Source: Daphnia carinata (Eukaryota). Taken from it: a stretch of 64,000 nucleotides of DNA. Of the stretch, positions 12,601 to 60,162 are shown in pieces. A program made the translations under genes and the position numbers. The first letter of the stretch is position 1. Each line of letters opens with the position of its first letter. Location of the stretch: the NCBI RefSeq assembly GCF_022539665.2, contig NC_081331.1, positions 6,386,001 through 6,450,000 on the forward strand, in the 5' to 3' direction. Below the pieces are notes generated by a model. The model was not told where the DNA came from and ran no database searches. It saw only the letters and a list, made by a program, of their open reading frames with translations.

Positions 12601-15600
12601 CCGAGAAGGGAACTTCGAGAGTGGAGCAAGCCAAACATGGATCTCTCTCCAGGTAGTAACCGTCCAAATGAACCAGACTGGCCAGCGCGTTGTACACTAC
12701 GGTATTGGGGTGGCGGACGATGAGCTGGTTCTCTTCCTTCAGTAACGCCACAGCTCGATCGACATAGCCGGGCAGCGAAGTTTCCATCCCTGGTGTTTTT
12801 ATCGTAAAATAGCCGAGTAGATCGACAAACTGCGAGGCTTTTCGGCCGTAAAGTTGAAGTCCTGACCATAAAGACCACATGAGAGCGACGAGATCTTGCT
12901 GCTGGGCCACGGACGAATGTCGGCAGAAGGAGTGGACCAGGGCGTGCGCATGCCAACGGACAGCGCTCTCGTTGCAATCCAGCAGGAAGCGGAAGATGAG
13001 GCGACTTATCAGGCGACGCTCTACGGTTCGATGTAATTGCTGGACAAAGAGGCCACAAACGCAACCTTCTGCGCCCGTACACGAACTGTCCAAGTCCCAC
13101 GGCTCTGCCGTGAGGTCGCATTCCGAAGATTTCTTAGCTATCGGTTGATTGGTGTTGGTGGCTGAGGTCACTGCGGCATTCGCGGACGACGAGGCCGACG
13201 TCTTCAATGGACAAAAAGCGTAGCGCAGTAGCTGGAGCAGCGTGCAGCACAGGCCTTCGTCAATGAAACAGACCAGCTGGACTAGGAACGACAACGTATC
13301 TCCATTTTGCTGGCAGTAGAGCTGCCAGTTGGCCGTCCGCGTCGCAGCCACGTCGAGGCACACCTTCAAGTGTTCCATGACAATCACGAGATCATCGTAA
13401 GGCAACACCAATCCATCGTGATTGCCTTCTAGGATCGCATCGAACCCGTGTTCCAACGCTAGTTTCTTGACGTCTTTGAAATGCGTCTCGATCGTCAACA
13501 GATCTCGACATTGGCGATATTTTTCCTTGGAACCGCAGTGAAACAGCAACAATTTACGCACGTGGCGTTTGACAGATGACGGGGTAGGTGCTGCAACGTA
13601 CTGACAAAGGCATTCCACCCAGCGTTGATCCAGCTGGACGTTGCTGTTTACTTTTTTGACAAGGTATGGCAGACGTAAAGCCATTTCGGTCAGCAATTGG
13701 GAAAATCCTACAGACCAAAACAAAATTTAAATTCACATTTAAATCATTGATTTTGAATTAACAAGCAATAAATTAAGTAACCTTCGAAGATGTATCCCGT
13801 ATTGCGATGCGTCAACGTTCTGGAGAAGAAAGGCGACAGGTCGAAAGCTGTGGGCACTACGGGGTGTTTGAGAAGGCCAGCTACGACGGGCGATTCATCT
13901 CCACCAGTGGCTTTCCAGTGCAGCAGAATAGCTTGCAGGAGCACGAGGCAACGTTCCATGAGGCCAGCATCCAAGAGAACTTTGGCTGCCACAGAAGCCA
14001 CAGTTGATAAAGACGTAGAAGTACCTCGACGTTGCGAATGACTGGCTTTGCCGCTTCCGCTGCTGGACTTGTGATGATGGGTCGACAAAAGAAAGCCGAA
14101 AAATTTCATGATCAACAGCTGTACTTCGTGCTGCGGTGTACGTTGTCCGGCTACTTCGATGGCCGCATCTCTTTCTAGGTCTAGTTCGCAAACAGCCTTA
14201 GCCAACGTCCGATGCAGTTCGTTCCTTTCTGTCGGGTCAGACGGCCTCAATTCAGACACCAAGATGAGCAAAACTTGCAGGAAATGAATGGACTTGACGC
14301 CGCCCTTCTTCTTCAATTCCGGAAGGTCGTCGGTGATTCTCTTCAGTAGAGCCAATCGTAATTGACGGAAGCACTCAGCAGACAAGCTGGACATTTCCCG
14401 CACTTCGTCGTCATTCGATTCCGGAGCAGAGGTGGCACCACTGGCACCTTCCAGACTCATGGCAATGGCCAGCTGCATAATATCATCTTCATCGCTGTGC
14501 GCGGCTTGGCGGCCAGGTTGAGCTGCCGCAGGTATCGATTTGCCATTGCAGCCCGTTTTCATGGTACGCTGGAGTGCGGCTTTAGCTGCGTGACTGACAC
14601 CCGCATCATCGCAAAGCAGCAGACTAATATAGTGATCCATGACAGGTGCCATCCATCGATGCGGTTCCGTTAAAGCAACCGAGAAGAGGATGTCAACGAT
14701 GGATTGAACGCAGAAATCAATCTGAGCCACGCCGAGTTGTCCAACGGGACTCAGCAGTGGATTGAGCGCGCGTTCGTGATGTAATCGCCGTCCAACAGAC
14801 AGCAAATCGCCGAGGAAATTGTCATTGGTAAATTGAATCAAGTTTTGCGGCTGGCTAGTGGCCACTGATTTCGTGATGGTCAACACATTGTAGAACGCCT
14901 CCGGATCCAGATGGATGGGAGATGTTTCGTCCATAATAGCTTTGAGATCGTTGACGACAGCCGTTAACAGTATGCGATCCTTGTAGTCGTGATAGGCGGC
15001 TCTGGTCGGATGAACATCGGCCAGCAATTGCTTGACGACGCCAGGAACGCAACTTCCGGCGCCCCAGGTCATCGTCAATATTTGCGTCGACAGACGGAGG
15101 ACGTGCTCTTTAGTGGCGGGCGAACAAGTAGGAGTGACGCTGCTTACGGGCAATGACAGAGCACCTTCAAGAAGAGCTACAGCTCCTCCGACTAACTGAT
15201 CCAGCATTAACTGGGCGGGGCTTTGCATTGCCAATTTATTGCAGGAGCCACTCGATTGCATGGTAGGGCTCTGCAGCTGGTGGCCTTGCGTTGGTGGCAA
15301 ATTGAGGGCTCCATTACTGCCGCTCGCTCCAGCCATCTGATCTTCGGCGTCTTCCGGCCAGCCAAAGACTTCCTTCGTCTTCCCGTAAACTTTAATCGAA
15401 TCGATCATGGTGACACCTAGCGGATCGCTGGAAGACCCGAAAGCGAGGACGAGTTTCTTATCCGCCTGGAGGCTTTCTTCTTTCGTTAAAGGTATGTCAT
15501 ACCAGCGATGGCGCTGCAAAACGAACGGAATGTTACGTCCAAAGATCTCGACGCAGGTAGGAGCTCGTTGAACGTCTTGCGAGCCGACGAGAATGCGAAC

Positions 15601-24932: not shown

Positions 24933-26412
24933 TCAAAATACGCGATCTTGGTAACTGCTATCAGCAGATGGATGAGGCTTTGGTTGAGGCAAAGCAGGGT
25001 GAGGTTGTGGCCTTCCAGCTCGGCGCGGCGGGGCCAGGAATTCAAACATACTCTGGCCGTGTTGGCCAAGCATTTTAGACAATTCGCAAGGCATAGGATC
25101 AGTCCAGAAAAAATCATGATTAAGGGCCGCATCGGCATCAACTCTCTTGGAAGGATCCAGCGTCAGTAACTTATCCAACAGGTCACATGCGTAAGGATCC
25201 TTGACGTAAGGTTTCAAGCGCTCTGAAAAATGGAAGTGAATCACTTAGCTGGATGTGTATGGAATAGTAAAAAAAAGATATTTCGATAAGCAACCTTTGA
25301 CTTTCCGTTTTTGTCCTTTCGGTAGCTCCATTTTGTTGTAAAGTTCGAGTTTTTCAACGTCAGGCCAAAGTTCTGGGACAATGGAACCACACAGTTGGCA
25401 AATCAGCGTCAGCTGGTGTTGTTCGGTATTGCCCTATTTCAGAATTACCTTGGTTAACCGACATTCAAACATTCCAAATAATCGACCCAAAATACCTGCA
25501 TGATTGGGCTACGAGTCCACATTTCAGCCATAATACAACCCGCACCCCACATATCCACAGGCGGTCCATAATTTCTTTCTCCTAACAGCAATTCGGGCGG
25601 TCGGTACCATAAGGTTACGACACGGTTGGTATATCTTTAAGAGAAACAGAAAAAAAGTGATTATCAAGAAATTTTCTCACATATTATATTTAATACCTGT
25701 TGGGCTGGTTATTCTTATTCAAACTGAATGCTCTTGCAAGACCAAAATCAGCTAACTTTAGGACACCAGTTCTGGTGATCAAGACATTGGCAGCTTTCAT
25801 GTCTCTGTGTAGGATCTTAAAAAGAACCACATTGAAACAAGCTTCAAACAGGGACTTGGGTGTCGGAAACTCACTTTGTTACTGTGGATAAAATACAACC
25901 CATTCAAAAGCTGCTGCATGACCTTTTTAATTTCTCCTAAACTAAATTTGACATTTGCATTGGACAGTAAACCAGCCAGATCGTGCTCACAGAAGTCAAA
26001 GACCAAGTAAAAGGTTGACTTGAACTTGTTGAGCTGGGTGACTTTTGTCCGGCAGATTTCTATCAAATTGACCACATTTTCATGTTTGAGCAGCTGCAAA
26101 ATTCGTATTTCTCTCAGAGCAGTGATAGGGAACTGGGAACAAAGAGAGAAGACATTATAACGAAATGCTCATCAATCATCTGAAATCAACAATGGCACTA
26201 ACCCCTTCTTTCTCATTTTCCATTAGAACTTTTTTTAACGCCACAATTTTCTTCGTCTTTTTGTGGCGGGCTTTGAAGACTTCACCAAAGGTACCTTGTC
26301 CAATCTTGGCCATTTTTTCGTACTTGTTGACCTCGTCACAAAAGGGAAATTCGAGTTCTTCCAAGAATTTTTCACGATCTTTGGGATTCATTGAGGTAAT
26401 GGATGTGGCCAT
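24933..26412 (-). CDS. CDK9: Cyclin-dependent kinase 9 (P-TEFb kinase), multi-exon
   Basis: [98 protein letters not shown] and the C-terminus YQDRVF*. Confidence 0.97.
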
Positions 26413-32101: not shown

Positions 32102-34854
32102 CTAGGAACTGGAAGTCGACGAAGCAATTTTCAGTAGTTCTTTCTGTTCCTGTCTGGCTTCCACTAGAAAAATGGACTCTTTTGTCTCCTTGGCGCTATG
32201 CACGTCGATCTTGTCGTAAATGATGCCGTTAAGGCCCAAGTTCTTCAAGTATCGGATGGTTGCTTGGTCATTATTATCCTCTCCCCAGCAGAAGAGGATG
32301 AGGCCTCGGCTTTGTACTAAAGCCACCTGAGTGGGATCGCGCAGAATATCTTCCGAATGCACACACAAACCCTTATGGGGAAGAGAAAAACGAAATTCGA
32401 TCATTTATGATACTGGGCACTGCTTTTCCATTGATGTTCAAAAGAGGAAAAGAAAAAAGCCTTATTACCAATATGCCAATCGCTGAAACGAAGTGAACTC
32501 CTGTGGGGATATTGTGAGTGCGGGGGTCGTGGTAGTCGGCGAACTTTGCTGTGATTCCCTGAGTTAGAAACATGACTGGGTATTTGTTCTGCTTCATACG
32601 TAACCTTCAAAACAACAATGGAAAGGTCGTAAAGTCTCACTGGTTTCCACATTTGAAAAAAAGGAATACTTACATGGTGCAAATGTCAGGATGGAAGCAT
32701 GAAAAGATAATCTTTCGTGTTCCGCCATACTGCAACACTGGCTTCAGGATAGTGTCCAGGTAGAGGTTGAGTTCAAATGGGTTGTTGAGTTCGAACGATC
32801 CATCCTAGAAAATAATTCAGCTAAACTTGAACGAACGCAAAATCGGATTTGATTTTTTTTTACCTTAAGTTGCATAGTCCATTTAATTTCAATGTTGAAG
32901 CCGCAATGCGGATCCAAGTGTTCCAAGGCACGTTGTAACGTGGGGAATGGCTGGTGATCATCAAAATCGTCATCATTGAGTTTAGGCACGCGAGTGTTCT
33001 CTTTGACATGGTAAATTTTGAGTTTTTGCAACTGGGCTAGGGTCAGCTCTTTGATAGGCAAATGAAGCATATCAACATGCCCTTCAGTGTTGCCATTAGT
33101 GCCTTCATCTTTCCCGAGTTTCTTCATCATTGCAGTGTAGACGTAAAAATCGTGGTAAATAACCGGTATCATATCCTTGGACAGTTGGACATCAAATTCA
33201 ATCATGTCGGCTCCATGTTTGGCAGCATGGGCTAAGGACGCTATAGTATTCTCCCGAATGGACGAACAACTTTTTCGACAGCGCAGGACAAGCAATAGTT
33301 TTTAAACGTGGAACATTAGATGTCAAGAGTAAATGGCTCAATCACCTCTTCAGTGCTTCTTTAAAAGAACTGCCGGCACCACGGTGGCCCACTTCTAAAC
33401 CGCGCCAAGTATGCTTCCAATGGCGAGCAAAAGATATGGACATGTCGCACTCGAATCCGTTCATAGGCCGCACGATCAAGTAATCCACTGAAATTTCAAA
33501 GGTATTTTGACAACGCCACAGTCACGCTGGCCAGCGCAGGTACCTTTTAGTTGGCCGATAGCCAAGTGCTTGGGACTGGTAATGGGCACAGTGGCACAGC
33601 CTTCACTTTGCGTCATGTTGTTCTGTAGGACGTAGCAAAATCCAACATGCTCGGGTGGATCCCCTCCGGATGTATTATGGGCGTAGAAGTCCACCAAAAA
33701 TGTCTATGGATCATAAAACACAACTGAAAATCTACTGGACATTGATGATTGTTTTATCTACTTACCACCGATTCGGGTTTGGTAACCTGAGCTTGAAAAA
33801 TTAGATAAGATCCGCGATCCATTAATTGGCCAAACTGCTGCTGAGGCTTGAACTCGCAATCAGCATTATTCATTGCCTAAAATAGAACAAAGTATAGCTT
33901 GAATACAACTAAAATGCACGAAAAGAAAAGGCAAAGACCCTTACCGCCACTTCAATTAAAGGCCAAGATTTAACCGCATTGCGTACGTCTTGCACATCCC
34001 AGCTTTCATCAATTCCACCATCCCGAACAGTATTGCTGCACGAGACATCAACCTCGACAGGTGTTACTTTCACGCGAAACTGACAGTTAAAAAAGAACTT
34101 AGAATTTGCTGGAATATATAAAAAGCTATGTAAAATTACAGCCTTTCCATGAAGAGATTTCTTCCACATGCGAATAGGATCGTTGTACAATTTCAGTTGG
34201 ACCACGGTTTCTTTCGTAAGCCAGCCTCGATCGACCCGTGTTTCTCCGTTGTAAGTCCCAAAGAGGTCAATGTGAATTAGGTCATTTTGAGAGCCTAGGA
34301 AATGTAAAATATTTTTTTGTTATACGATTGTTAACTGATTAGATAATCAACACAAATATACTGTTAATCTTTATTAGTCTTGGTGAGATGTTGGTCTCCC
34401 ATCTCCTCACAATTAAATCTCTTTTGTTTCCTTCATCATTTTCAGCTATGTGATCCAAGACGATGCAAGTGAAATAGCGGAAGTAAACTTCTTGATCCAC
34501 CGGTAGCTGAACAGTCCCCTGCCAAATTTCATTCCTACATTAAGCATATAAACATTAATAACACAATTCTTCAAGAAGAAATGTACAAAGTTTGGGTGAA
34601 AGTTTTGAATCCACTTATCAGATAGCCACTCACCCATCTGATGAATTAACTATACTTTTGGTCAGGAGGATTCCATTTTGGTGGTTCCAGTTTCCCAACT
34701 GATGGCAGTTTCCAACAACCCCAACACATTCACCTGGTGTAGTCCTCAAAGTCACACGGAAATTCCACTCTCTTCCAAACATCTAATAATAAGCACAGCT
34801 ATTAATTGAATTGCACTGAAAAATCTAACAAAGGATCACCATGCTTACTTTCAT
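32102..34854 (-). CDS. GPCPD1: Glycerophosphocholine phosphodiesterase (CBM20 + GDPD domains)
   Basis: N-terminal CBM20-like VGVVGNCHQLGNWNH. GDPD motifs EVGHRGAGSSF, RENTIASL...GADMIEFDVQLSKD, QPFPTL, GFNIEIKW, IIFSCFHPDIC, KQNKYPVMFLTQG and FCWGEDNN. Start is either MK at 34854 or M at 34782. Confidence 0.92.
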
Positions 34855-39240: not shown

Positions 39241-40343
39241 TTAGCGGCCAATTTTGTCGATCATTTCCGAGTAGTCCGGATCCTGATCCTCCATTAGCAA
39301 GACTTTGAGGCAAGCCTTGAAAAAAGGTGTACTAAAACATTCCGACCTGGAATTACACATTTATATTACAAACAATAATTTAAATTATCATTTAGCACAA
39401 ACTCGTATACCGCACACCAATCGAAAATAAAAAAGACAAAAACCACCCAAGTTTTTGTTAATGAAAGTGGGTCAATTGTTGGTCAGAAAATGCACATCAC
39501 CAGCCAGTTTAAAACACCTGATCGTTAGTTTCAGCGTTTTTTGCGAGTTACCAACGAGTTAGTTATAAGCCACAATTTGAAAGGCACCCCAGTCATTTGT
39601 AGGGCCTTGAATACGCACGTATTGAAAATGGAAAAGCAGAATAAGCTTTAAACAGAAGAGAAGTTGCTGCAAGGTTACTTTTGTTTGCCAGTTAAAATGG
39701 TAGTTTCGAAAGCTGATAAGCCATTTCTTTTGTTTGGAAACTGCTGAAACAACCAATTTTATACCTGGACACTTTTATGCCCTCTTTTTTAAATGGGGAT
39801 CTGGTGAATGATGGAAATATCTTTCATAACTCTTTGAATGTCTTTTTCGTCGTTGATGAGAAGGGCATCTAAGCAGCCCTTGAAATAGTTGGTGGTGAAG
39901 CAATTCTTCCTAATAAGAGAATTAGAACACGTTTCGTTATACAACCTCTTGTTTTTCACATCAACGACGTTGTAACCTTGCCCCTCGTTACAAATCAAAT
40001 GATTCGTTACCTTGACACAGTAAATGGCACACGAGATCAGAATCAGGACAATTTACCTGCAAAGTGTATGAAGTTCAGGTTCGCGATAGAGGCTGTAGCA
40101 GTCTTGACAAATGCGATCAAGGCGGGCGAAAATGCTTTTGTCGTAGAGCCCCTTGCAGTTGATATCAAAGAAAGACCGTTTGGACAAGGAATGGGGATTG
40201 CTGGATAAAGCGGACATGGCTGATGACGGGTAACTGGGCAGCACTGCCAACAAAAGCACTAGAAGAGTTGTGATGCCCAAGAGAGATCGCGTCGAGTAAG
40301 AACTAGGTGTTTGGCGTCCATTCTGTTGCACTGCGGCCATCAT
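39241..40343 (-). CDS. ITP: Ion transport peptide (CHH family), short amidated isoform ITP: exons 40343-40057 + 39346-39241
   Basis: Signal peptide, KR cleavage site, then mature SFFDINCKGLYDKSIFARLDRICQDCYSLYREPELHTLCR/SECFSTPFFKACLKVLLMEDQDPDYSEMIDKI-GR*. This gives 72 aa with 6 Cys and a Gly-Arg amidation signal. Confidence 0.93.
39789..40343 (-). CDS. ITPL: ITP-like long isoform ITPL: exons 40343-40057 + cassette exon 39909-39765 (stop at 39789)
   Basis: Alternative second half KNCFTTNYFKGCLDALLINDEKDIQRVMKDISIIHQIPI* (79-aa mature peptide, non-amidated). AG acceptor at 39910-39911 and GT donor at 39763-39764. Confidence 0.88.
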
Positions 40344-41196
40344 TTTCTCCGTATTTTCTAAAGGTTTAGTTGAACTGTAAAAAAAAATAAAAAAATTAAA
40401 AAAAAAATGTTTGTTTAAAAGCGGTGTTCTTCACATTTGCCGCGAAGCCGGTTTCTTTGTGACGGTGTATCTTGGAAAGCAAACTCCTCCTCTCACACTC
40501 ATTTTAGATGTTTAAAAAAAATCTTCCCCTTGAATGTATTACGCATCGACGTGTGGGCCGTGACATGGGCGTTTCCCAGTGGCTGACAGTGAATGTGTGA
40601 CGTCACAGTATTTCCCTTTGGTACGCATTCCTCAGGCATCGTTTCTCCTTGACCATATGTACGTTGATCGGACTTAGCGACATCATCATACACGTGAATC
40701 GAATTCGGCTGATGTAAAGGGCATAGAAAATAAGCCCGATAAACTTTTGTCTTTAAACACTAAATAAGTTTAGGAAATCACATTGTTTACAAAAAAACAA
40801 AATCGAAGCGGTAAGAACGAGCATTTTCTAGAAAGGGTAGGGTGCAAATAAAATACTTGAAAAGGAAGGGGTTGAAATTTAGAAGTTTGTGCATTTACCC
40901 TCACCTGGGGCAACTTTATGCTTCTCAACGGGTTGTCATAACCACAATGTATGGATGGCATTTATACATATTTCTAAAAAAAAACTCAGCTAAAGAGATA
41001 CTTGCTATTTTTCTAAATTGAATTTCAGGTAACTGGAGCAAAATTACCTGTGATTAATAACGCAAATCCTTGGGATCACACGTGGGCTTGATTTATAAAT
41101 GAGGGAACTGGCACTTTTATTTGATAGATCAAAGGTGAAGGAAAAGTTATTTTAAAAACCGTACAAGTGCAGAGTAAACACAAGAATAACGCTGCC

Positions 41197-46352: not shown

Positions 46353-49300
46353 TTACGGAAGAATACGACTCGTCTGCTCCGAGTACTCAGTTCCTTCAAG
46401 CCCTCGACACAATAGGGAGAATTCTCGTACAATGTCTTGCAGTCGCCTTTTGTTTGACTTTTCCCTACAATAAAACATGCCATTAATAAGTACAAGACAA
46501 TCAGGAAACAAGGCAAACTACGTACTTCAGGATAGAACGGCAAAAATTCTCCTTTTGAGGCTGACTGACAAGAGGCGATGGAAAACGTTCGCGACCAAGA
46601 GATGTGCTCATCCACCGACAGAGACTGTCAAAATATTTCTTGTTAAGTGCCAAAATGACGTCGGCCGTATGTTCCACCAGGGCCCGAGGTGATTCTCCAC
46701 CTAGAAAAAAAAATATTAAAAAGTACAGCCGAAAACTCCACAAATGAACTTTCTTAACCACAAAAAGGGCCCTATTCAATCAACGTTAAACGGACGGTAC
46801 ATGATTATGCGAATGAAAACACTATACCTATGCAGCTAAGAAGCTGGGCGACAAGAAGTGGACCCTGATTCTGCACAACAGACACAAGTTCAGGATTCTC
46901 CCTACTTTGAGTGATGAAGTGAACCAAGTATTGAGTAGACGCTTTAAGGACTGGTGATTCAGGTCTCGTTAAACCGACAATTCCACAATAAAACAGCGAA
47001 GATAAAGGGTAAGCGGAGCCGCTCAATAATTTTGGACTTTTTCTGATTATTTGAGTGAGAAGACCGAGAAAACTGGCCAAGACTTCATTGTTTTCGGCGA
47101 GCCGGCTAACATCAACGGATGGCACTCCGTCCAGTGTCAGCGTACTGTAGTCGATCCCGCAAACTTGCAATGTAGTTCCAATAATTTCCGAGAGGAAAGC
47201 TCTAATAAGCTGCTGAGCGTCGCCAGTAGTCTGGCTGAAAATTAAAATGATGAGCTTAGCTACATCCAATGTAGCTGCTTGGGGTGACAGCCGGTGGCAT
47301 TGGACGATTACGGCTGCCAATTCTGGCAAGAAAGATAAAGATTCTTCCATCAAAGTTGAAACAGTATGTTTGACGACCAAGCAGATGGACTAAAAACAAC
47401 GAGATTAGAAATTTAGCAATATTGGGATTTAAATGTCATTTGTACCTCGGAAATCTGCTCATCGGCCCCCCAGTGGTCCACAACACCTTTCAAGAATGGC
47501 AGCAATTGCTGGGCAATCAAAAGAACAGGTTGTTGCTGAATTGCCAAAGCCTGTCGAGTCACGGATTCATCAGCTTCAGAATCGTCTCCCCCAGAGATTC
47601 TTAGGTCGAGCGTGGTGCATAACGTAGCAATCCTAGAGAAACGCAAATAGAAATTTCGGCATAACAATTAAGGTTGAAAGGTGCTCATTCTCAATGACTT
47701 AACCTTACATTTTAAGCCTGGTAATAAGTACAACTTTTGTCAGGGCGTCCGGTTCTCGGGTGTTGCACAACGTGCGCAATTCTTCTACACACGGGCCAAC
47801 CACACGATTGAGGCTAGCTACTATCACATCCAAGGGTAGAATTGATAAAACTTTTCCTAATATGTACATCAACCGTATCTAGAAAAAGATCGAGTCAGTC
47901 AGCACCAAAATGCTACACGTGTAAATAACGTTACCTTTTCACTAGCTTTGAGATCATCGAGGCGCAAGGCTTGTTCAGCACCTTGCAACAATGCTTCAGC
48001 ATATGGCCGAATCCCAATTTGACAATCTCGAGTTATATCCTAGGAATGGTGACCGTTAGTATTAAGGCTCCATAGAGAAATAAAAAACAAACATATCTAA
48101 ATGTGTACATTACCTTAAGGGCCAATGTTGCTGCTGGTGCGGCGTCCGAACTGTTAAGACCGAAAAGGAGAATAGGTAGCACATGACCCAGGTAGGTGGG
48201 ATGGGCGCTCAACCATTCAGCGTAAGCGCCAAGTGTCTCGAGCGCCGTATTAACGACGTAACGATGACCCGAGCCGTATGGAATATTGCCAAATAAACTC
48301 AGAATCTGAGGAACAAGCAAGTCTGCTTCTGCTTCGATATTCTCAGCGACCGCCTGATAGTTGCCGACATGGTAAGGGCCTGTTCGCTGGCAATACATGG
48401 TAAACAGTTAAGTGGGACTTACTTTTAAAGCGTGTAGACATGCCTCCAACGGAGGCCATTCACTGGGGTTCTGATTGCATTGTGACACCGTTGAAGCAAG
48501 GTGGGACGCCAAACGGTTCATCATGGCCGATCGCAGGAACTTATAACAATATGCCAATGTATCGGAGATATCCTAATATTACATTTGGGCATAGAACAGA
48601 ATTATTAGGCATTTTGGAAGCGAATGTACTGCATACCTGACGATAGCATCGAAAGGTCTCTTTGTCGTCGGGACTCCAATCCGATTGATCTACCGTAATC
48701 ATCGATTTTGTCAACAAGATATCGACCAAGGCCAAATAGGCTGGGCCGAACAACGATTCGTAGATTTTCTGTTTCTCAGCATTTGAAGTGCAGATGTCGT
48801 CTTGAAGAATGTACCTTATGGGGCAAGATAACGTTTGCTTTAAGATACTAGACAATAAAACATGAAGAAAAATGTGAACTACCAGAAACTAAATGCCAAG
48901 TGACTACAATTTTCGTCTAGTGGGTAGCGACCGGGAGTTCCGGTGCTCTCCAACATGATTTGTGTCAGCTGCAGAACATTCTCCTTCTTTAGTCCGTCTT
49001 CCAGAACGGCGTCTAATAAAAGACGAGAGTGGCTCTCGCCAAATGCCGCAAGCGTAGCATAGATGTGCGCGGCACCCTCCAGATCTCCTTCACGTCTGAG
49101 AAATTCACAAACGGTTTTCTGCAATGCGGAAATGAATGTCTAGTGTCAAACGGAGTACCTAAGCAGCTGGATTTGGTCTTTCAGAGAGAGCAACTGGTTC
49201 AACATGTCCATAAGCAAACTTGGATAACGGTGAGCTTCCGGGTGGTTCAAAAGATGAGTCAAGGCGTCCAAAGATGCTTCAGCCAAATTCGCATTACGAG

Positions 49301-50293
49301 CCACCGCTAACAAAGGTTCCACCAAATGAAGACTTTCTTCTAAGCCGATTCCAACTCCATGTTGAATCCACGATGAGAAACATTTGATGCCAGCCAACGC
49401 GGCTGCTTCGTCCTCCGGTGAAATTTGTGCCTCACGCGAGATTCCACGGCATATCACTTCGCGCAAAATTGGTAGTACTAGATTTAGATAATAAATGATT
49501 ATAAACTTTAGTAGTCTTGGATGGGGAACTTTCTAAAAACATGTTTAATACCGTCTTTAACTGCCTTAAGTAGTTCTCTTCTAATGGAGATTTTTCGATC
49601 ATGCGTTAATTTCATATTTTGAAACTGGGAAAGATATGGGTTTAAAAAGAGTTTTATACTAAGAGTTAAGGGTATATAAATTCAAACCTCTTCTGGAAGA
49701 ACGGTCAATATTTCTAGCAACAGTGTTACATGATGTGATTGCAATGTTCTTTCTCCACTGGCCTGCTGCAACACTGATATGAAATCATTCAGGGGACTAG
49801 CCCACTGATCAGGAATGGAGTGCAATATCATGGATGATAGCTTTTTTCCAACAGATAAATGAAATTTTATGGCATTTGCATGATGACAAGCGATTACTCT
49901 TTTCACTTACCGCCAGGCATAACCTGGTTAAAACGATTTTGGGCCCACTTGCATAAAACATAACAGCGTCAATCAGTTTTTCTCTGAAAAGTGCATAATT
50001 GTCAGCTGGAATCTCGTGCCAAAATCTAGATATCTTAATCTGAAGTGAGCTTGCTCCAAAGTACTGCACCTCCACAGGCTTTAAGATTCAACATAAACTG
50101 TATAACAATGTAAATTGTATCAACTATTTTTGAGCATGCTTACCTTTGATTGATCGAGAAGTTGCCATGCAAATATCCATGCTTGAGCCGATGTTTGAGC
50201 AGCAGTCAACCACACGTTAAGCTGGGATTGTGTGGCTAAATTTTGATAAAAATGACTAACGGCTTTTTCTAAATTCTCGACAGTTAGCTCCAT
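46353..50293 (-). CDS. IPO13: Importin-13 (cadmus), multi-exon
   Basis: MELTVENLEKAVSHFY, AQTSAQAWIFAWQLL, EVQYFGASSLQIKISRFWHEIP, GPKIVLTRLCLA, LLEILTVLPEE, PGRYPLDENCSHLAFSFW, DDKETFRCYRQ/DISDT and C-terminus EKSNKRRLQDIVREFSLLCRGLEGTEY. Confidence 0.94.
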
Positions 50294-53044
50294 TATCAGA
50301 AATTTCTTCAGAATATGTAAATTTATCTCCTCGTTTTATTGTTTATAAAAAGTGTCACAAAGCTATTTTACCACCACATCGCAGCAGACGAATTTCAAAA
50401 TCAAAACTGTCGTCTGCCACCAGATCGCGTTATTATCACGTCGATATTCTGGCTTCCTGCAAAATGTTATGAATGAAAATGGACTTTGCCCAACACCACC
50501 GGCCGAGAAAATTGGTGTTGTGAAGGTTGATGAAAAACTGAGCTACGTGTTCCAAGGTTTGATTCTGCTCAAAAGATGACCATCAAACATCGCGTTTTAC
50601 AGTTTGCTGGCAGGAGTTTCATAAATTCGTCCATAGCTCTCCCGTTATGCCTTTTGAGGGCAAAAGAAGGTAAATTGCCTCACGTAATCCATCAGGACCT
50701 CAAACAGAGACCCTTACATGGTGATTCAGCTTCCTTGGAAGGGACTTGTGCCCCACTACATCCTCGTGTATACGCATAGGAAATTATTCCATCGACCTGA
50801 GTTGATATTCCAACATCTTACGAGGCCAACTAGATTCAAAAAGTCTTGTGTCTGTACGTCGGAGAACTTAAATGTTTGTTTTTTTTGGAATGCCAATGAC
50901 CTTTTCAGCTTTCCCCTAAAGACGAGTTATGTTTCTTTCTTCTCTTTTATTCAACACGAGCGTCCTCCAAACATCGCGTCCTTGTCCTCTGGACTTTGAC
51001 TGCCAAAGTCCTTGCTTAACTGCCCAAAGTTTAGGGCAGTCTTGTGTTATTGCAACCCATTTTGAACGTATGGGTTTTCGCCGTTCAGTTTTGAACAGGT
51101 AACTTAATCGAAACATCGCCAACTGTCTGGGTCAGCATTGATGTTCGTCTGCTGCTGGCAATATGTCGGATTTCAACGTTTTCAGTAAACACAAAATCCT
51201 TTAAGATGGTTGTATTGTTTGATCAGGAAATGTAATAATAATGTATTAACACACAAAAAAAGGGGACGGTTTGGAAATCGGAAAAGAAATAATACAATCA
51301 AGTGAGCATTTCAATATGCATCTCTGGGAATTATTTCAAGAGAACAGCCAAGGGCCGGAATGTTTATGCAAACTTGTATGGAATAACGAGAGGTAAACGC
51401 TACAAGTTCAATGTTTTGTTTTTTTTTGTTTTTTTTTCCCAGTAGATCACTTCCCGAAAAAGGTTAAAGGTATAAAATTTCTTCTTTATTAATTCTTTAT
51501 TGTGTTTTCGATTCCAGAAAAAAACATCAAAATGAATCGTGAAGAGAGGGTAGGGAACGGGGGGTGGGATGTAGAAAACACGTTTGGTTTCTCTTAACGT
51601 AAAAAGTCAAAGACAAAAAAGAGGGGAAGAAAATAATAAAGACGGGATTCAAAGGGTTTCGTATTCTTTCTTTTTTCCTGTTATTTTGTTCCAGACGAGT
51701 ACCATCGTTCCATGAACAGGAATTTCGTGGGGGGAAGGGGAGTGGGGGGGGGGGACTTATCGAAAACTTGGACAAAGGCAACAATAGAAAACAAAAAAGA
51801 TAATCATTTATTTCTGTAATATTTTTTTTTTTTTTTGGTCCTCGCATTTGACTGGACTGTTGTCTTTTGTTTTTCTTTTTTGAATTCCAGTTTTTGTTTT
51901 TCGTTTGTGATGTTTCTTCTTTCGTTTCTGTCGTTCCTCGATTTATTGATTCGGCACTTGAGCACAAGGAAAATAGATGAAGAAAAATGGGGAAAGAACA
52001 ACTAAACAAAAACAAATGACAGAAGAACATCATTCTCTCCTTGATTTCCTTTATTCTTTCGTTTTCTTATTTTTTGTTCGTTTCAACTAAACTCCTATTG
52101 GCGATGGATCAATCCGAAAAACACGTGAACTCAACAAGAGACCCTTTGTATCAGGTATTTGAAAGGGGGGGGGGGGGGTGAAAGAAGAATAAGAAAAAAA
52201 AAATTATTCGATATCATTAATAATAATAAATTGAAGATAAAAAAAAAAAGAGAGGAAGGCAGCTTTCAACTTGTGGGGAGGGGGGAGGGAGAAGCGAAAG
52301 AATTACGGGATACACACACATTACACCAATCGATGTGATATAGTTTGTGCGCGTGTACGTGTGTATCTTGAAAACTTGGATATGCCTTTTATGTACACGT
52401 AAACAAATAACCCCATTGCTACACCTCTACGTCATAGTAAAGTCGAACAAACTGATACCGTTAAAGGTAGTGTTTTTTTTTTCTTTTATTATTATTATTA
52501 TTATTATTTGTAATTGTTTCGTCTTCTCGCTTGTTTTTTTTTTGTATCCTTTTTTTTTTTCTTCTTTTGCTATGACACACACGCGGAGCAAAAAAAAAAA
52601 AAAAAATTATGTATTCACGTACCGGGGCGAGGTACGCGAAAGAAAAAAAAGGCTGGAGTCGATGGAGGGAGTGTATCGAAGAAATTTGATAAGCAAAAAA
52701 AAAAAAAAAGAAGAGGAAGAGCAAAAAAAAAAAAAATGTTTGTAATAAAGGATGATCATTTGGGATAATCCTGAGGCTACACGGAGAGAGAAAACTGTTC
52801 TTCCAGTTCTCGCGCGCAGGTAAAATAAGGCGGGCGTGAAAGGAGAAGATTTCTCTTAATAAAAAAAAAAAAAAAAAAATAAAGAAAAAATAACGTAATA
52901 ATAAGAACGGATGGAACAGGGGACGAAAGAAGAAATTGTTAATGGGGGTGAAAAAACTCAAAAAAAAAAAAAAAAAAGAAAACAATTAAGAGATACGAAG
53001 GAAAGGCTTTTTGTTTTTTTTTTATCCATAGGCATTTGGGCCAT

Positions 53045-55248
53045 CTATTCATTCTTGGAATGAAGAGCTCCATTGGTGTAGCCGTTTGAGTGGCCGTTGG
53101 TGTGGCCGTTCTTCTCGTGTACTTTGCCGTTGGCGTGACCATTGGTGTGGCCGTTGGCGTGCCCGTTGGTGTGACCATTGCTGTGACCATTGCTAGTGCC
53201 ATTAGAGTATCCGTTACTGTGTCCATTGGCTTTCAAGCCATTCGTAGCCGCCGCAATCTACTCACACACACACACACAACAGTCAATAAAAACAAATTAG
53301 ATCAGAAATACCCCAACCAAGACATAAAAAAAAAACAAAAAAAAACAAAAAGCTTCGCTATTCTACAGGTGGTCTGGTCGCAGTAAACAGTTGGACTAGT
53401 TTCCAACATTTAATGTGGACAGAGGGGCGGAGCGACACGTGGAACTGAAAATAATCCGCTTTCCTCCGACACTTGAAAGAAGGGTAAACTATTTTTCCCA
53501 CGAAAAACTTAAATTGGATTTGAAAAAAGAAAAACGTCTTTTCTGCTACTTAAAGCAGGAAGAAAATTTTTTTTTAATGTTCGGAGTCAGCGGCAGAAAT
53601 GAATGAAACGCTTACGCGAGACTTTGCGTTTTTGTAGCTGCGTTTGTAGAAATCAGAGAAGAGGCAGAAGAAGAGAACGCCGTGGCAGCCGATCCACCAG
53701 ACGAAGGCCTTGGGGTAGTTGCAATCGATGAAGAGAAGTTGGAAAGCGTGCACCACAATAGCGATGAATTGAACCTAATAGCGGCGTAAAAGAATTAAAA
53801 AAAACAAAAACAACAAACAATCAATTCACGTGTACACAACATTGCGGACCATCATCGGCCTTCCGCTTTGCGAGGGCCACGCCCTGTCGATCCAGTAGGA
53901 TCCACCAAACGTCAACAGAACGCACTAAATCAAGACGGATGGTTCATTTTTTTTTTGTGTGTGTGTGTGCGGAAGGATGTCGCCATTTGTTAGATGTCGG
54001 ACAGGACAAAAGAGAACGACGTACCATCTGGAAAGCAGTGAGGTATTTCTTCCACCAAATGAACTTTTGGTATTGGGGACCCATGGCGGCCACCATGTAG
54101 TAAAAGTACATGACAATGTGGACGAAGGTGTTGAGCAAACCGAAAAAGGTAGAGTGGCCACCGGGAGTGAAGCGGACTCCGAACCAGACACTCATCGGCA
54201 TAATACCGTGGTGGACGACGTGAAGAAGGGAGACGTGCTCGTCCTTTTTGCGCAAAACGAAGAAGAACTGCAATGCAAATGAGGAGAGATGGTTCATTAA
54301 ATCAATGATTGATTTTAAAAATAATTGAGTATCTCACGGTATCGAAGAACTCGGTGAACTTGGAGAAGTAGTACCACCAGCAGGCGTAGACCATCTGAAT
54401 TATGTCGCCAATAGAAAGAATAGCGTTAGATCATCACGTTCCGTTAAAGTCGACATTGCTTTAAATTGTTTTAGGAAATGAAACTTCCATTTTTTTTTTT
54501 TTTTTGGGGGGAGGGGGGGTTTTAAGAAGGGGGAAAAAAACATAAAAAGGTTTGGAATTGAACACAAAATCTCGTCATCAAACAAGATGCCTGCAATGGG
54601 TTCTTATGCAATTCACACATTGTACTGAAATTGCGATTTACGATCGTTGCATCATTGCAGGATTCTTAAACATTTTTGATGAACGAAATAAGCGGAATAG
54701 GTTTGAAGAAGTTTTGAACGTAAAAAAACAAAACTTGATGTTTTCTTTTTCTTTTCTTTTTTTGTGGCAGAACGGAGGACATTTTGTGGAGGCGTGTCGG
54801 GGAGCAAGTAACGTGCGTCTATCTTTTGTGTGTAGCGTGATTTTGTTGGAGCTATCATGCAACCAATAAATAAAAAAATAAAGCGTCAAGCAAACAAACG
54901 CAAATTGGGAATTGTGTTGACGGTCGATTTGGTCGCGGTATTTTTTTCAAAATCAATTCGTAATGTTTGTTTTTTTTTTTCAACTTTAAATCTACGGTCC
55001 AATACGAGAGTCGGTCTTTCAGTTTCAACTAGTCTCATTTTGTTGTTGTTGTATGTAGTAGTTAAAAAATTGCACTAACTACAGCATTTGTGTTAGTAAA
55101 TGAAAAAATCGGACAATGTAAGGTGGGATTAAAAAATTACAATAAAAAAAATCAATAAATAAAGAAAGAACGGAAACAAATGTGAAAGGAAATTGTATAA
55201 AAAAAAAAGACTAGCACGAAAAGCCGTTTGAAAATCATTTGTAATTAG

Positions 55249-55289
<41 letters not shown>

Positions 55290-58200
55290 TAGATAGAGGT
55301 GGGAGTGGGATTGGAATTGTTGTGTTGTGATTTTGTATGTAAGGAGGATGATGATGAGAAGTGCGGAGAAAATTGCAGGTAAGAGAAAAAAATAAAAATA
55401 AAAACACGTACATAAAAAAAAAAAAATGTGGAAAGAACGTCGAAGGATAATCATGCACACAACTCACCCGAATAGCCAGCGGATTATCAGTATAATCCAC
55501 CGGTTGGCAACGGTAACTGTAACTATTTGCCCAGCCAGACATGGCTATCTGGAAATAAAATAAAAGCGCGATCGCACCGTCACCAAAAAAAAAAAAAAAA
55601 TTTTTTTTCTTTAATTTCTTTCTTTTTGTGACATATTTCGATTTTTAAAAATTAATTAATTTTTTTGTGTGTGTGCGTTTTTGTTCCTCTTTTTTCAGAA
55701 GAAATTTCCAATTAAAATTACCCTCCCTCAAAAATGATCTATGAACGTCCACTGACATTTCGCTATTGGCGTTCTTTAATTATTTTTTTTATGAGAACAC
55801 TCTTATTAAACAAACAAAAAAAAAAAAACGAGCTGAAGAGAGTGGACCCGTTGTTCTTTCATTGCCCCATCGATTTTTCTTTAAATTTTTTTTTGAGAAG
55901 ATCGTGCACTTCTTCGAGGCATGGTCTCTTTTTGAACAGCATCCAGCAGTAGAGAAGGAAACAGATCGACAGAGCAAAAAAAAAAAAAAAACAAGAGAAG
56001 ATTTTTTAAGATGCAAAACTAAAACAAAAAAAAAGATTGTGCAGGAAAGAAGGAGATATGCCGACATCATCGACGACGTGTGGAATAAAAAGAAAAGTTT
56101 TCCAAGAAGATAATACAACAAAACATTTTTTTTTTTTTTTTTCGAATGTGGTTGTCTCCCCGGCCTATCTAAACAAAAAATGATTTGCACCTGGAATCAA
56201 TCAGCTGGTTGCGACATTTGTAAAAACAAAAAAAAAAAAAAAAAAAAAACAAGACGAAGGTAAGGAGATTCATATGGAAAGGTGGTAGCGTGTTGATCCG
56301 CCCGTGTTTCTTTTTTCGTTTCACCTCAGGTAAGAACATTTCAGCTAGAAATTCGAACACCGAAAGATGCCCCACACAAAATTGATCCTAGCTGTTTAGT
56401 TGTTATCGATTAGTTTTTAAAAGCGAGATTGGACTGTTTTTTTTAATGCGTCCCTTTAAAAACCATGCACCAAAAACACGGCCAAATGCAGTAAAAAGTT
56501 GAACGTTCGTGTTCCAAAAAAAAAAAAAAGAAAAGAAAAACAATTTTTTTTTTCTTTTTCTTTTCCAGGTAGAAAAAAAATTTACAAAGATGGAATGCTT
56601 CCAAAGCGGAGGCTGGGAGGGGGGGGGGGAGGGAACGTTCTTTCACTAGACCAAACCGACGCTTGTCTTGTTTTAATATTTCATGTTTTTGGAGGACTAC
56701 AAAATTTTGGAGGATTTTTTTTTTAAATATTTAAATCCTTTTTTTTTTTTTTTAAATCAAAGAAAATTAAAGATGGGACTGCTTCTAAAAGGTGGGGCAT
56801 TTAATTTTTTGACAGAAAAAGAGGGCGGGGCATATTGAAGAAAATTCAAAACTCACCCTGACGGCCATTTCGTCAAGGGAATAGTCAACTGGTTGACACA
56901 CAAAGCTATATCCATGGAACCAGCCCCCTCTACCGTACTGCGAAGAAGAAAATCACAAAACAACACAAAACAAAAAAAAACAAAAAAAAAAAAATACAAA
57001 CGGATTATTATCATTAAAAAAAAATGGATGGGATTTTTTTTTTTGTGGCCTGTTGTTTTCCCTCGAGTTGGATCCATCACAAGACGAAATGTTTTTTTTT
57101 TTTTAAATTGCTCCTCTTAACGACACAGATTCTTTGTGTCCGTGATTTAAATCACACGGAACGTCTATCTGCCAACCAAAAAAAACCGATGCCTTGACGG
57201 GCCTTGGTGGATAGGCGAGGTGAGGATCAGGTGAAAGGATCGGGAAAGATGGGGCTGGAAGAGAGTATAGGAAAAGACCAAAGTAAAAGGAAACTTTAAA
57301 AAAAACCCAGAAACATTTTCAAATAAAACCTTTGGAAACATCGGCACAGCTGAGAGAGAGAAGGCCCCCCCCTCCCTCACCATATCCTCCGATTCAAAAA
57401 TCATTCCATTTCGTAATAATTTTGTGCTCCCCAAGATTCTGACGAGAATTAAAAAAAAAAAAAATGAATAAAATATAGTAGGAAAAAAAATGAATAAAAA
57501 TAAGTATTTTGAGGATGTAGTACAAAGTGTTAATAATAATCTAATAAAAAAATGAACGTGAAAAGCTTGTCATCCAGATGGCCAAGGGGAATGGTAGTGA
57601 GAGGCATTTTCAAATAAATAAATTGAAAAAAAAAGAAACTCGTCGGTGGGGGGTCAGAGAGGTACCAAAAGCAACGAATAAATACACCCGAGTCAATATA
57701 ATAAAAGCAGATGAGATAAGAAATGTTTGAAATTAAAAAAAAAATGAATAAATTATCGACCTTTTTTTCTGTTCGATTTTTTTTTTTTCAAAAATTTAGT
57801 TTTAAACGTTGGGTCTTCAAAAACGTCTGTCTTCGACGAACACTCTGTTTTCGAATTATTTTTAAACTCAACGTCGTTCTCGTAGTTTATGTGACGCAAT
57901 CTTTTCGTGTAGTATGTGGAGGGCCGATTGAATTCAAAAAAAAAAAAAAAAAAAATTGGGGAGATAGAAAGTGTGGGCCAATTTTACTTTGATGGAAATC
58001 TTTCTTTAAAAAAAAAAAGGAGGTCATAGAGAGAAAAGGGAGAAAGAGAGAGAGAGAGAGCGATATTGCAGACACAAAATACAAGACTCACCCGAATGGC
58101 AATAGGATCGTCACTATAGTCAACTGGTTGGCACTTTAAACTGTAGTACTGTAGCCATCCACCCATCAGCGACTGTCAAGACGCATACAGATTTGTTTTT

Positions 58201-60162
58201 GATCAAAAACGATTCATCATTTCATTGACAAATCAAAAAAAAAATTCATTTTCGTGATTCGACGACTCATTCCACCAAGTCCACACCGTTTCGTCTCCCC
58301 CAATGTTATCAGTCTGTCCTTTTTTTTTTTTTTTTAAATCTTTCAATTCAATTGCACCGTCCATTAAAAAAAAAAAAAATACGTTAAGTAGCCCCCGTTG
58401 TTTCCCTTGTTTGCCCCACCCCCCTTCCAACGATACAAACAACCACAACAACTAAGTGTCAAGAAAAGAAGAGGAATAGAAATAAAAATAAAATAAAAAT
58501 AAAATACTTTTGGAAAGAAGAAAAAAATAAATAAATAATATAAATCAACATAATAAAAAGCGGGAAGGCGGAGGATAGGAAGCGTATTGTGCGTGACTAA
58601 TTGCAAACAAATAAAATTTCAAACGTGCCGCCGCAATGTTGAAAATGAACAGCGGATCCACTTTCCCGACCCAGCCCCGATCTTAAAGAGTTTCGTACAA
58701 TAAATTCGTTCGAGGAATTTAATTGAAAAGAAGGTAATTTAAAAAAAAAATAATAATAAATAAATAAATTTAAAAAGTGGGAGGGGTGAAGGTAATAACT
58801 GAGGTGAAATTTGTCAGGTGTGAATTTTGAAACGGACTTGGCCGAATCGATCAAGGATTTCAGGATATGTTAAGGATACCGGTGTGGACAATATGGTGGC
58901 AGGACGTTTTCAGGTTTTTTTTTTTTTTCATCTTCTTTCCTCGTCAATTCCGATGTCTTAAATTGTTTTGTGTTTATAATTAACTTAACAAAATTGTAAT
59001 CGTGACTTAGGCGTAGAAATGAAACAATCGTATTTTACCTCGTAGAAGAGCCACGTGCTGAAGATGACTTGTATCGCGTTATAGATGACCAAAGTGCGGC
59101 GGAACTGGAAGGCTGGTCGGTCCTTCATGTAGGCGGGTCCCCACACTTTGACGAGCATGACGTAGGTCAAGCAGATTGCCAGCGTCGACAGCGGCGAGCT
59201 CATAAACAGCCAATTCTCCACTCTCCTATCTGATTTTGGCAAACAAATGATTTTATTTTTCGTTATTCTAAACGAGTCCAGACATGTTTTAACATTCAAT
59301 TTTCGTTACGCAAGCCGACAGTCTAATTGAATTAAATTACAAGTCTCTGGGGTATTCCCTGATTAGTTATTAACAATGTGACCCTCGTAAACGTACGGAC
59401 CGTCACGCAAAGGATGTCGTTTCTATTTTTTGTTGTTAGTTACAGACGTTGCCACACGAATCTGCACGCTAACACGCTCGGCCCCAGACAAATGAACTAA
59501 TCAAGTCTGTTACTCATACCCCACCCCCCCCCACCCCAAAAAAAAACAACGTGGTAGATCAAAATCTTAATTCCAGTGAATTGCTAATTTGAAATTAGCA
59601 TTTGTTAGTCAACTTAAATGCGTCTAACAATGTCTGGTATATCAACAACTGACGAACGGGATGAAAACAGCACGACTGACATCATTTTTCCCTATGACGT
59701 CAAGTGGCCAATGGCAAACGTTGAGGATCACGTTTCTCAGCAATGACATTCAACTTGGGCAGAAAAAAAAAAAGAAAAAAAAAATTGAAAGTGCAACACT
59801 TTGTTTGCACCAAATGAAATTCAACCAACTGGTTTGACGCGTTTTGATACGTCATTTCACCTTGCGCACGCAAACAGATAGCGCGTGAACTTGAAAACGA
59901 GTTTACCTCGCATTACGAGGGTTTAGCCCTTCAACGATGACCATTGAACGTGATCCACTTCATTCTCCCGTTTAACTAAATCTTAAAATTTCCGCTTCCA
60001 CTTAAATCGTTTCACGTCTACCCGAAACATAACGATTAGATTTGAAAAGCCCGCGAGAGGGCGGCCATTACGAAGCGGGAAATTTGAATTGAAATGTCAT
60101 TTACCTCTGAGGTCCCATATGCTGTTGTAGCCGTCGACGACGGTAGCCACGAGGGATGCCAT
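53045..60162 (-). CDS. Very-long-chain fatty acid elongase, ELOVL7/ELOVL1-like. Exons 60162-60105, 59229-59039, [3a/3b/3c], 54394-54338, 54267-54025, 53774-53616, 53257-53045
   Basis: [47 protein letters not shown], the HVVHH histidine box, [26 protein letters not shown] and DCNYPK. All junctions are GT-AG and in phase. Confidence 0.95.
53070..53230 (-). repeat. 12-nt coding tandem repeat encoding (NG[H/Y/T][S/T/A])n in the elongase C-terminal tail
   Basis: [35 protein letters not shown]...[14 protein letters not shown]. Confidence 0.85.
55253..55285. repeat. (AG)n microsatellite followed by (ATAG)n
   Basis: Uninterrupted agagag run seen directly. Confidence 0.9.
55468..55548 (-). CDS. Elongase alternative exon 3c ([27 protein letters not shown])
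   Basis: 81 nt, ttccag acceptor, GTGAGT donor, phase 0/0. Confidence 0.9.
56857..56937 (-). CDS. Elongase alternative exon 3b ([27 protein letters not shown])
   Basis: 81 nt, polypyrimidine tract plus cag acceptor, GTGAGT donor, phase 0/0. This reading frame is not in the supplied ORF track. Confidence 0.9.
58092..58172 (-). CDS. Elongase alternative exon 3a ([27 protein letters not shown])
   Basis: 81 nt, cag acceptor, GTGAGT donor, phase 0/0. Confidence 0.9.

Follow-up and report, generated by a model that had tools for sequence, protein, structure and literature searches.

A fatty-acid elongase gene of Daphnia carinata carries three homologous copies of its third exon, and we consider it fairly probable (about 0.6) that one of these three ancient exons enters each mRNA, that the choice is made by competing pairings within the introns, and that the isoforms extend fatty acids of different length or saturation. 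The gene lies in a stretch of 64,000 nucleotides (nt) of contig NC_081331.1 (positions 6,386,001 to 6,450,000; assembly GCF_022539665.2), called the window below, whose own numbering is used for its coordinates. It is ELOVL1/7-like, belongs to the ELO family and comprises seven exons on the minus strand, at 53043-60162 (TM, transmembrane helix):

60105 to 60162, minus strand: coding exon 1, with the ATG at 60162; the protein matches the RefSeq isoforms
59039 to 59229, minus strand: exon 2 (TM1 and most of TM2), constitutive, phase 0 at its end, which is read by loose ends of 3a and 3c RNA contigs
58092 to 58172, minus strand: alternative exon 3a, of a-type, whose position 1 is a small residue
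56857 to 56937, minus strand: alternative exon 3b, of b-type, whose position 1 is an aromatic residue
55468 to 55548, minus strand: alternative exon 3c, of c-type, whose position 1 is an aliphatic residue
54338 to 54394, minus strand: exon 4, constitutive, phase 0
54025 to 54267, minus strand: exon 5 (HxxHH catalytic box, TM4-5)
53616 to 53774, minus strand: exon 6 (TM6-7 loop, with the partner cysteine Cys228)
53043 to 53257, minus strand: coding part of exon 7 (Asn-Gly-His-rich tail) and stop

A sequence-only reading of this stretch had described exon 3 as an array of three, and its particulars were confirmed throughout: at those coordinates each copy measures 81 nt, is phase 0/0, has a CAG acceptor and a GTGAGT donor and is free of stops; the pattern GW-x3-YS-x2-CQPVDY-x5-A-x-R fits all three, and the CQPVDY codons vary synonymously only. 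Pairwise identity among the copies is 40-50 of 81 nt and 12-16 of 27 amino acids (aa). The flanking exons 2 and 4 are single-copy, and a six-frame motif scan of the 64-kb window found no fourth copy. Every splice path through a single copy (3a, 3b or 3c) gives a stop-free frame of 333 aa, and the reading frame is also kept with zero, two or three copies. Introns of 1154 and 1308 nt separate the copies. As neighbouring internal exons with similar length, frame and splice sites and with sequence homology, they show the features by which Kassiopeia defines tandem-duplicated mutually exclusive exons (PMC3923563). The repeat search gave low-complexity A/T repeats only, among the matches listed, and Pfam matches to SsdA_C and cytochrome b (E about 0.2) were set aside as chance. 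The gene carries an ancient, tandem-duplicated alternative exon array of an already known type, and it is very likely that this array is a working alternative-exon switch.

The three predicted proteins are letter-for-letter the RefSeq isoforms X1 (3c), X2 (3b) and X3 (3a) of a Daphnia species (XP_057369760/61/62), and the D. pulex and D. magna RefSeq sets hold the same three isoforms. This exact identity, together with RNA joints at exactly the predicted sites (below), means that the three-copy gene structure is not a matter of chance. All three isoforms score 212-216 bits on PF01151, above the cut-off, and carry the hallmarks of elongases: the HxxHH box (H145/H148/H149) and the luminal cysteine pair C97 and C228. 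A structure model built from a 92-sequence alignment (predicted local distance difference test, pLDDT, 76.6) compares with human ELOVL7 (6Y7F) at a TM-score of 0.88-0.90 to the target and a root-mean-square deviation of 1.9-2.0; a single-sequence fold of the 3b isoform, at a pLDDT of 42.5, was unusable. In trees made without the exon-3 segment and with a midpoint root only, three insect paralog sets group together to the exclusion of the Daphnia gene (support 98/96 with 38 rows; 93 by the SH-like approximate likelihood ratio test, SH-aLRT, with 47 rows including distant relatives). One of these sets is the AAEL008004 group, and it is there only that alternative exons were seen. On this placement the Daphnia gene is best called co-orthologous to the three insect sets.

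Evidence that each copy is spliced comes from RNA contigs (four runs from two studies, freshwater samples with several relatives) mapped on 53000-58500; these runs are 4 of the 11 that contain such sequence, the other seven having been left out for their small word shares. Joints to exon 4 fall at the predicted sites with GT-AG ends for 3a (two runs), 3b (three runs) and 3c (two runs). Exon 2 lies outside the mapped stretch, and the 5′ sides of 3a and 3c show loose ends that carry the terminal part of that exon. Joints between copies (3a-3b, 3b-3c or 3a-3c) were absent from the 15 joints listed out of 16. Among 17 metagenome loci, eight are spliced full-length contigs, each with a single exon-3 copy (four c, three a, one b). 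What the contigs show is the separate use of every copy, not strict exclusion, because rare forms drop out of contigs. Two points in these data weigh against our reading: an exon 2-3b end was not seen among the 23 loose ends listed out of 143, exon 2 being outside the mapped stretch, and the contigs come from mixed relatives, with rare forms dropped. Two contigs of run X6 are of other kinds: in one (record 18, 58092-58179) the 3a acceptor is preceded by 693 nonmatching letters, and in the other (record 17, 56850-56939) 3b adjoins about 900 letters of intron. They could be incompletely spliced precursors or DNA, or could reflect an alternative start. Elsewhere in the gene, the Asn-Gly-His-rich C-terminal tail (53046-53257) has a 12-nt insertion in two runs, and relatives show a longer exon 7 start.

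The array is conserved copy by copy. A genomic contig, L017, which we infer to be from a more distant cladoceran, carries the end of 3a, then 3b, 3c and exon 4 in that order, with donor flanks that match their window counterparts. Its 3b agrees with the window's 3b at 70 of 81 nt and with the other two exons at 49 and 37, and all nine exons compared from relatives (9/9) are closest to the window exon of the same class. Codon changes in L008 number 15 synonymous against 4 non-synonymous. Exons 4 and 5 are continuous in L017 (2168-2289), where the 70-nt intron is missing. In a wider set of 271 orthologue-group proteins with a readable segment (225 NCBI/UniRef gene models and 46 assembly-derived proteins, the latter being those used of 81 listed, 35 of which had no readable orthologue segment), three segment classes were found, with 54 (a), 8 (b) and 53 (c) distinct non-Daphnia units; class c is 28 aa long in insects. 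Same-species isoform pairs make up 16 of the 24 protein pairs compared, and all 16 differ inside the exon-3 segment only: nine are from Daphnia and seven from damselflies, locusts, an aphid and a soldier fly. Position 1 is diagnostic of class: Cys/Ser in a, Tyr/Phe in b and Ile/Leu in c. By profile, 3a scores best on class a (60.8 bits) and 3b best on b (73.7). Exon 3c is the top Daphnia exon on class c (46.5 bits), yet it reaches 55.5 on class a; because it scores higher on a than on c, its orthology to the insect 28-aa c exon is weak, resting on position and first residues, and this too counts against the full reading. A b-type exon occurs in the springtail Orchesella (where the first 11 residues are those of 3b), the damselfly Hetaerina and the isopod Armadillidium. 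Since exon classes are shared among cladocerans, insects, a springtail and an isopod, the array is likely to be older than the split of branchiopods, malacostracans and hexapods. That split dates to about 500 million years ago.

Two insect paralog groups have a single exon here (for example P0100 and P0066), and their segments begin with Tyr in 30 of 31 or with Ser/Cys in 20 of 22, echoing the b and a exons. The first residue alone hints at exon class in these groups; profile scores do not separate them. The idea that each group inherited one exon class was unsupported, as both score best as a-type (23/31 and 15/22). In a distant elongase, P0442, the segment stands in three identical tandem copies, through independent duplication or an assembly artefact.

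How the copies could exclude one another is narrowed by the sequence. Steric hindrance was rejected (the introns exceed 1 kb), as were frameshift with nonsense-mediated decay (all copy combinations are in frame) and U2/U12 incompatibility (the splice sites are ordinary GT-AG); because these safeguards are excluded, another is needed. A comparison of the window's introns with those of another Daphnia (contigs L009, L013 and L015) shows a few exact islands within otherwise diverged sequence, and on and around them six pairings, P1 to P6, were predicted:

58640 to 58667, minus strand: candidate upstream docking site, 28 nt, identical in L015; predicted partners 55838-55859 (P1) and 57228-57257 (P5)
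55838 to 55859, minus strand: candidate selector, 22 nt, about 290 nt upstream of 3c, identical in L009; arm of P1
58874 to 58906, minus strand: conserved intron island, 33 nt; best partner 58262-58299, just upstream of 3a (P6)
57364 to 57416, minus strand: candidate competing arm downstream of 3a; predicted pairing with 56582-56629 (P2) or 54770-54805 (P4)
56582 to 56629, minus strand: 3′ arm of P2, of which 56589-56623 is a matching piece in relatives' contigs (joints at 56589 and 56623)
56644 to 56662, minus strand: candidate arm downstream of 3b; predicted pairing with 54920-54937 (P3), which would loop out 3c and crosses P2
54920 to 54937, minus strand: conserved island, 17 nt (L009, L013), candidate downstream docking arm of P3
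54770 to 54805, minus strand: pair of neighbouring islands (15 and 13 nt) conserved in L009, candidate for the docking arm of P4 on the downstream side

P1 joins two fully (100%) conserved islands, neither of which has a better partner in the 4.6-kb cluster, at -28.6 kcal/mol (0/60, 1/100 and 0/100 shuffles); the orthologous arms in the relative also pair, at -33.3. P2 would form a 45 bp stem around 3b (0/100 shuffles), and its region of 881 nt folds at z -2.78. P3 (2/100 shuffles) and P4 (27 bp; 5/100 shuffles for one of its islands) each have one arm on a conserved island. Neither P5, which uses a less conserved 5′ extension of the docking site (18/100), nor P6 (28/100; its partner arm alone 0/50) rises above shuffled background. 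Arms are shared between P1 and P5 and between P2 and P4, but the dock extension that P5 would use is not conserved. In the model that follows, P1 would loop out 3a and 3b and expose 3c; P4, whose stem would loop out 3b and 3c, or else P2, would hide 3b/3c and expose 3a; and P3, crossing P2, would hide 3c and leave 3b. Exclusion of the copies by such competing pairings is, on these predictions, somewhat better than an even bet.

Several results weigh against this mechanism. Of the 15 conserved blocks tested, 10 have no partner at 2/100 shuffles or better (58906, 58856, 58599, 55088, 55020, 54801, 54566 and 54441 are blocks without a partner above shuffles); five reach that level, two of them being the same pair and one having been picked post hoc from its helix. 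Random intron blocks also hit 1/50 or better in 3 of 25 cases. The best duplexes of the cluster (-48.3 and -42.4) beat 3/3 local shuffles, and duplexes in an unrelated upstream intron are as strong (-46.6 and -41.9). No compensatory changes were seen, the core arms being invariant in the one close relative, and no matching intron elements were found in the distant cladoceran contig L017, which covers the array from the end of 3a onward. A strong match there (2097-2123) to the window's dock was rejected, a local hairpin explaining it better.

These points can be read in favour of a different account, in which exon choice is real and is set by splice-site strength and splicing proteins, with the pairings incidental or fine-tuning. 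The high background of strong pairings, the missing covariation and the lack of the elements in L017 all suit it, as does the result that no 3b selector for the upstream dock was significant; the acceptors, moreover, differ in pyrimidine content (11/20 for 3a, 16/20 for 3b and 3c). It does not readily explain why the arms of P1, two independent and fully conserved islands in diverged introns, should be mutual best partners, or why P3 and P4 also hit conserved islands. We therefore regard it as a genuine but unlikely alternative to competing pairings.

Other intron elements were seen beside these. A stretch of intron 2 (58813-58831) has 18 bp of complementarity with the 3b donor (56845-56862) at -26.1 kcal/mol (1/100 shuffles, picked post hoc); only its 3′ half is kept in L015, and the predicted pairing could act as a mask of that donor. 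Just before the exon 4 acceptor, 54404-54426, a random control, pairs with the start of 3a (0/50 shuffles). The intron between 3c and exon 4 holds exact islands at 54996-55020 (25 nt) and 55059-55088 (30 nt) with no partner above shuffles, possibly protein-binding splice regulators. Outside the cluster, an intron 6 island of 33 nt (53425-53457) is 91% identical in L009 and L013 and 95% over 21 nt in L011.

The swapped segment corresponds to residues 84-110 and aligns without gaps to residues 86-112 of human ELOVL7. In the alignment-based model it spans the end of TM2, the luminal loop and the first turn of TM3. In human ELOVL7 the TM4-5 loop seals the tunnel, and the disulfide-linked TM2-3 and TM6-7 loops (C99-C231) part it from the lumen (bioRxiv 10.1101/2020.11.11.378570). 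C97 and C228 are the equivalents here of those two cysteines. The sequence-only reading had placed the segment at the end of TM2 and in the luminal loop, near the closed end of the acyl tunnel, with its Cys bonded to that of the TM6-7 loop: the placement and the bond stand, but the tunnel is sealed by the TM4-5 loop, and the segment does no more than shield that loop. Position 1 lies 14 residues past the inward-facing Asn70 and, by helix periodicity alone, is predicted to face the barrel interior. Disulfide geometry between loop 2 and loop 6 has been suggested to affect ELOVL specificity (PMC10449689), and a gammarid Elovl1/7-like enzyme elongates C18-C22 polyunsaturated fatty acids (PUFA) (PMC8073319). 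The tissue- or temperature-specific forms that the sequence-only reading suggested, like its distinct chain-length or saturation preferences, stay hypothetical; a substrate switch by segment swap is plausible. Replacing 27 residues, with position 1 turned inward, may alter the shape of the cap that covers the tunnel's closed end, a proposal that we put at just short of even odds; and on this modelling a difference between the isoforms in substrate (length or saturation of fatty acids) is also a little less likely than its opposite. Two observations count against it: none of the five named acyl-lining residues of ELOVL7 (W158, G161, G170, F238 and I242) lies in the segment, these being five of its 16 acyl contacts, of which the full 16 bear directly on the segment's role; and loop 2 takes one and the same shape in homology models of four human ELOVLs whose substrates differ (PMC10449689).

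The exons could also be exclusive while the luminal cap adjusts not substrate choice but the enzyme's folding or stability, its tolerance of temperature or its partners in the lumen of the endoplasmic reticulum. The TM4-5 plug stands between the tunnel and most of the segment, a luminal loop, and the absence of the named acyl-lining residues fits as well. Residues that vary between mutually exclusive exons (MXEs) are mostly surface exposed (PMC7954323), and the honey-bee gene of the same name (AAEL008004) is differentially spliced in cold stress, the event type being unstated (PMC11677483). Yet the strongest class differences fall at the end of TM2 (positions 1-4), with position 1 predicted to face inward, and the proposed influence of the loop 2-loop 6 disulfide on specificity (PMC10449689) speaks for the substrate instead. 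On balance we think a role confined to the cap's stability or partners rather unlikely. We are similarly doubtful of a more elaborate form of the preferred reading, in which a three-state switch predating the crustacean-insect split swaps the tunnel cap to give distinct products, under bidirectional competing pairings, with the b state lost in most insects; the products could then be, with the same low confidence, polyunsaturated membrane lipids as against very long cuticular precursors.

Strict exclusion meets its clearest objection in the gene models of other arthropods. Tandem two-copy proteins make up 61 of the 271, all of them among the 225 gene models (60 insect a+c, one isopod); they occur in flies, ants, bees, sawflies, locusts, a damselfly and an isopod, and many are RefSeq isoforms alongside single-copy ones. 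Together with the in-frame character of every combination, this would fit cassette exons that are also spliced together, a two-copy protein (doubled luminal loop, two Cys) being a regular product. Against such cassettes, all 61 come from genome-based models, two-copy proteins are absent from the 46 assembly-derived proteins, the 19 of the Daphnia group and the 8 spliced contigs, and no copy-to-copy joint appears among those listed; we judge them quite improbable as a regular product. In insects the a+c form may be a real minor product or a modelling artefact, both being possible. The mutually exclusive splicing that the sequence-only reading proposed holds in part: separate joints and single-copy contigs (8/8) agree with it, and Daphnia transcripts probably take one exon each, but strict exclusion is contradicted by those 61 gene models of the 225, from insects and an isopod. 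A single functional exon beside two recent or decaying duplicates is next to impossible and was ruled out: nothing was found in its favour, all three are spliced, their order is kept in the distant cladoceran, and each class is nearer to its counterparts in other taxa than to its neighbouring copies. The pattern that the sequence-only reading named as contrary, one spliced exon with the others decaying, is not what was found.

Neighbouring genes, listed over 4600-49500 of the window, include a UBR4-like giant gene (Pfam match 11960-13726), a GDPD-domain gene (32747-33301) and an exon of a CHH/ITP-family neurohormone (40056-40430). Exons at 24933-26168 and 46805-49532 are presumably CDK9-like and importin-like, respectively.

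The sequence-only reading knew of no description of this arrangement, which is less new than that suggests: the isoforms stand in RefSeq (three Daphnia sets and many insects), and a fly gene, FBgn0051522, is among the MXE genes of a published list, its exon not named (PMC7954323, S1 Table, fly sheet). Full-text searches, which left most subscription journals uncovered, returned nothing by title or abstract start on this exon cluster, its isoforms or their function. The available parts of PMC8315507 and PMC5039406 hold nothing on elongase splicing, PMC13502018 concerns an isoform switch of a different kind, and searches of the supplements of PMC11677483 and PMC7318467 gave no match. The kind of arrangement and, in automatic annotation, the isoforms are already known; the three-class history of the array and the candidate RNA-pairing mechanism are new. 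Surprise is limited because the arrangement is of a known kind and already in gene models. Its consequences may be wider. Arthropod elongase work (cuticular hydrocarbons, pheromones, omega-3 upgrading in zooplankton) assays one cDNA per gene, and if the exon switch alters products, such assays have overlooked two or three enzymes inside one gene. The isoforms form a natural chimera series that differs by 11-15 residues at the tunnel's closed end; because they are otherwise identical, the series directly tests what sets ELOVL chain-length preference. The predicted pairings would also provide a small three-exon model of splicing control by RNA structure in a crustacean.

Set beside known systems, the closest are the RefSeq Daphnia models, which hold the same gene and the same three isoforms (in the first set letter-for-letter); these models differ in being automatic, without statement of exclusivity, age, mechanism or function. 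Next come the Drosophila gene FBgn0051522, which by FlyBase numbering we take to be CG31522, and Aedes AAEL008004; in Drosophila relatives the segment exists in an a-type and a c-type version. Unlike the Daphnia gene, the Drosophila/Aedes gene has two exons (27 and 28 aa), no b-type was seen there, and two-copy models are common. The docking-site and selector systems of Dscam1, srp, MRP1, 14-3-3zeta and Mhc (PMC6071210) likewise have conserved complementary intron elements around tandem exons, and the bidirectional pairing model described there combines upstream and downstream arms with a crossing, pseudoknot-like pair, as here. In contrast to those systems, the pairings here are predicted only, the arms are invariant, and the upstream dock has a single clear selector, not a separate one for each exon. 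Among enzymes, the gammarid Elovl1/7-like protein is a relative with C18-C22 PUFA elongation, described as a single form ("splic" is absent from the available part of PMC8073319). Human ELOVL7 (PDB 6Y7F) has the same fold, HxxHH box and Cys pair and is also described as a single form, and human elongases as a whole draw their substrate variety from seven genes.

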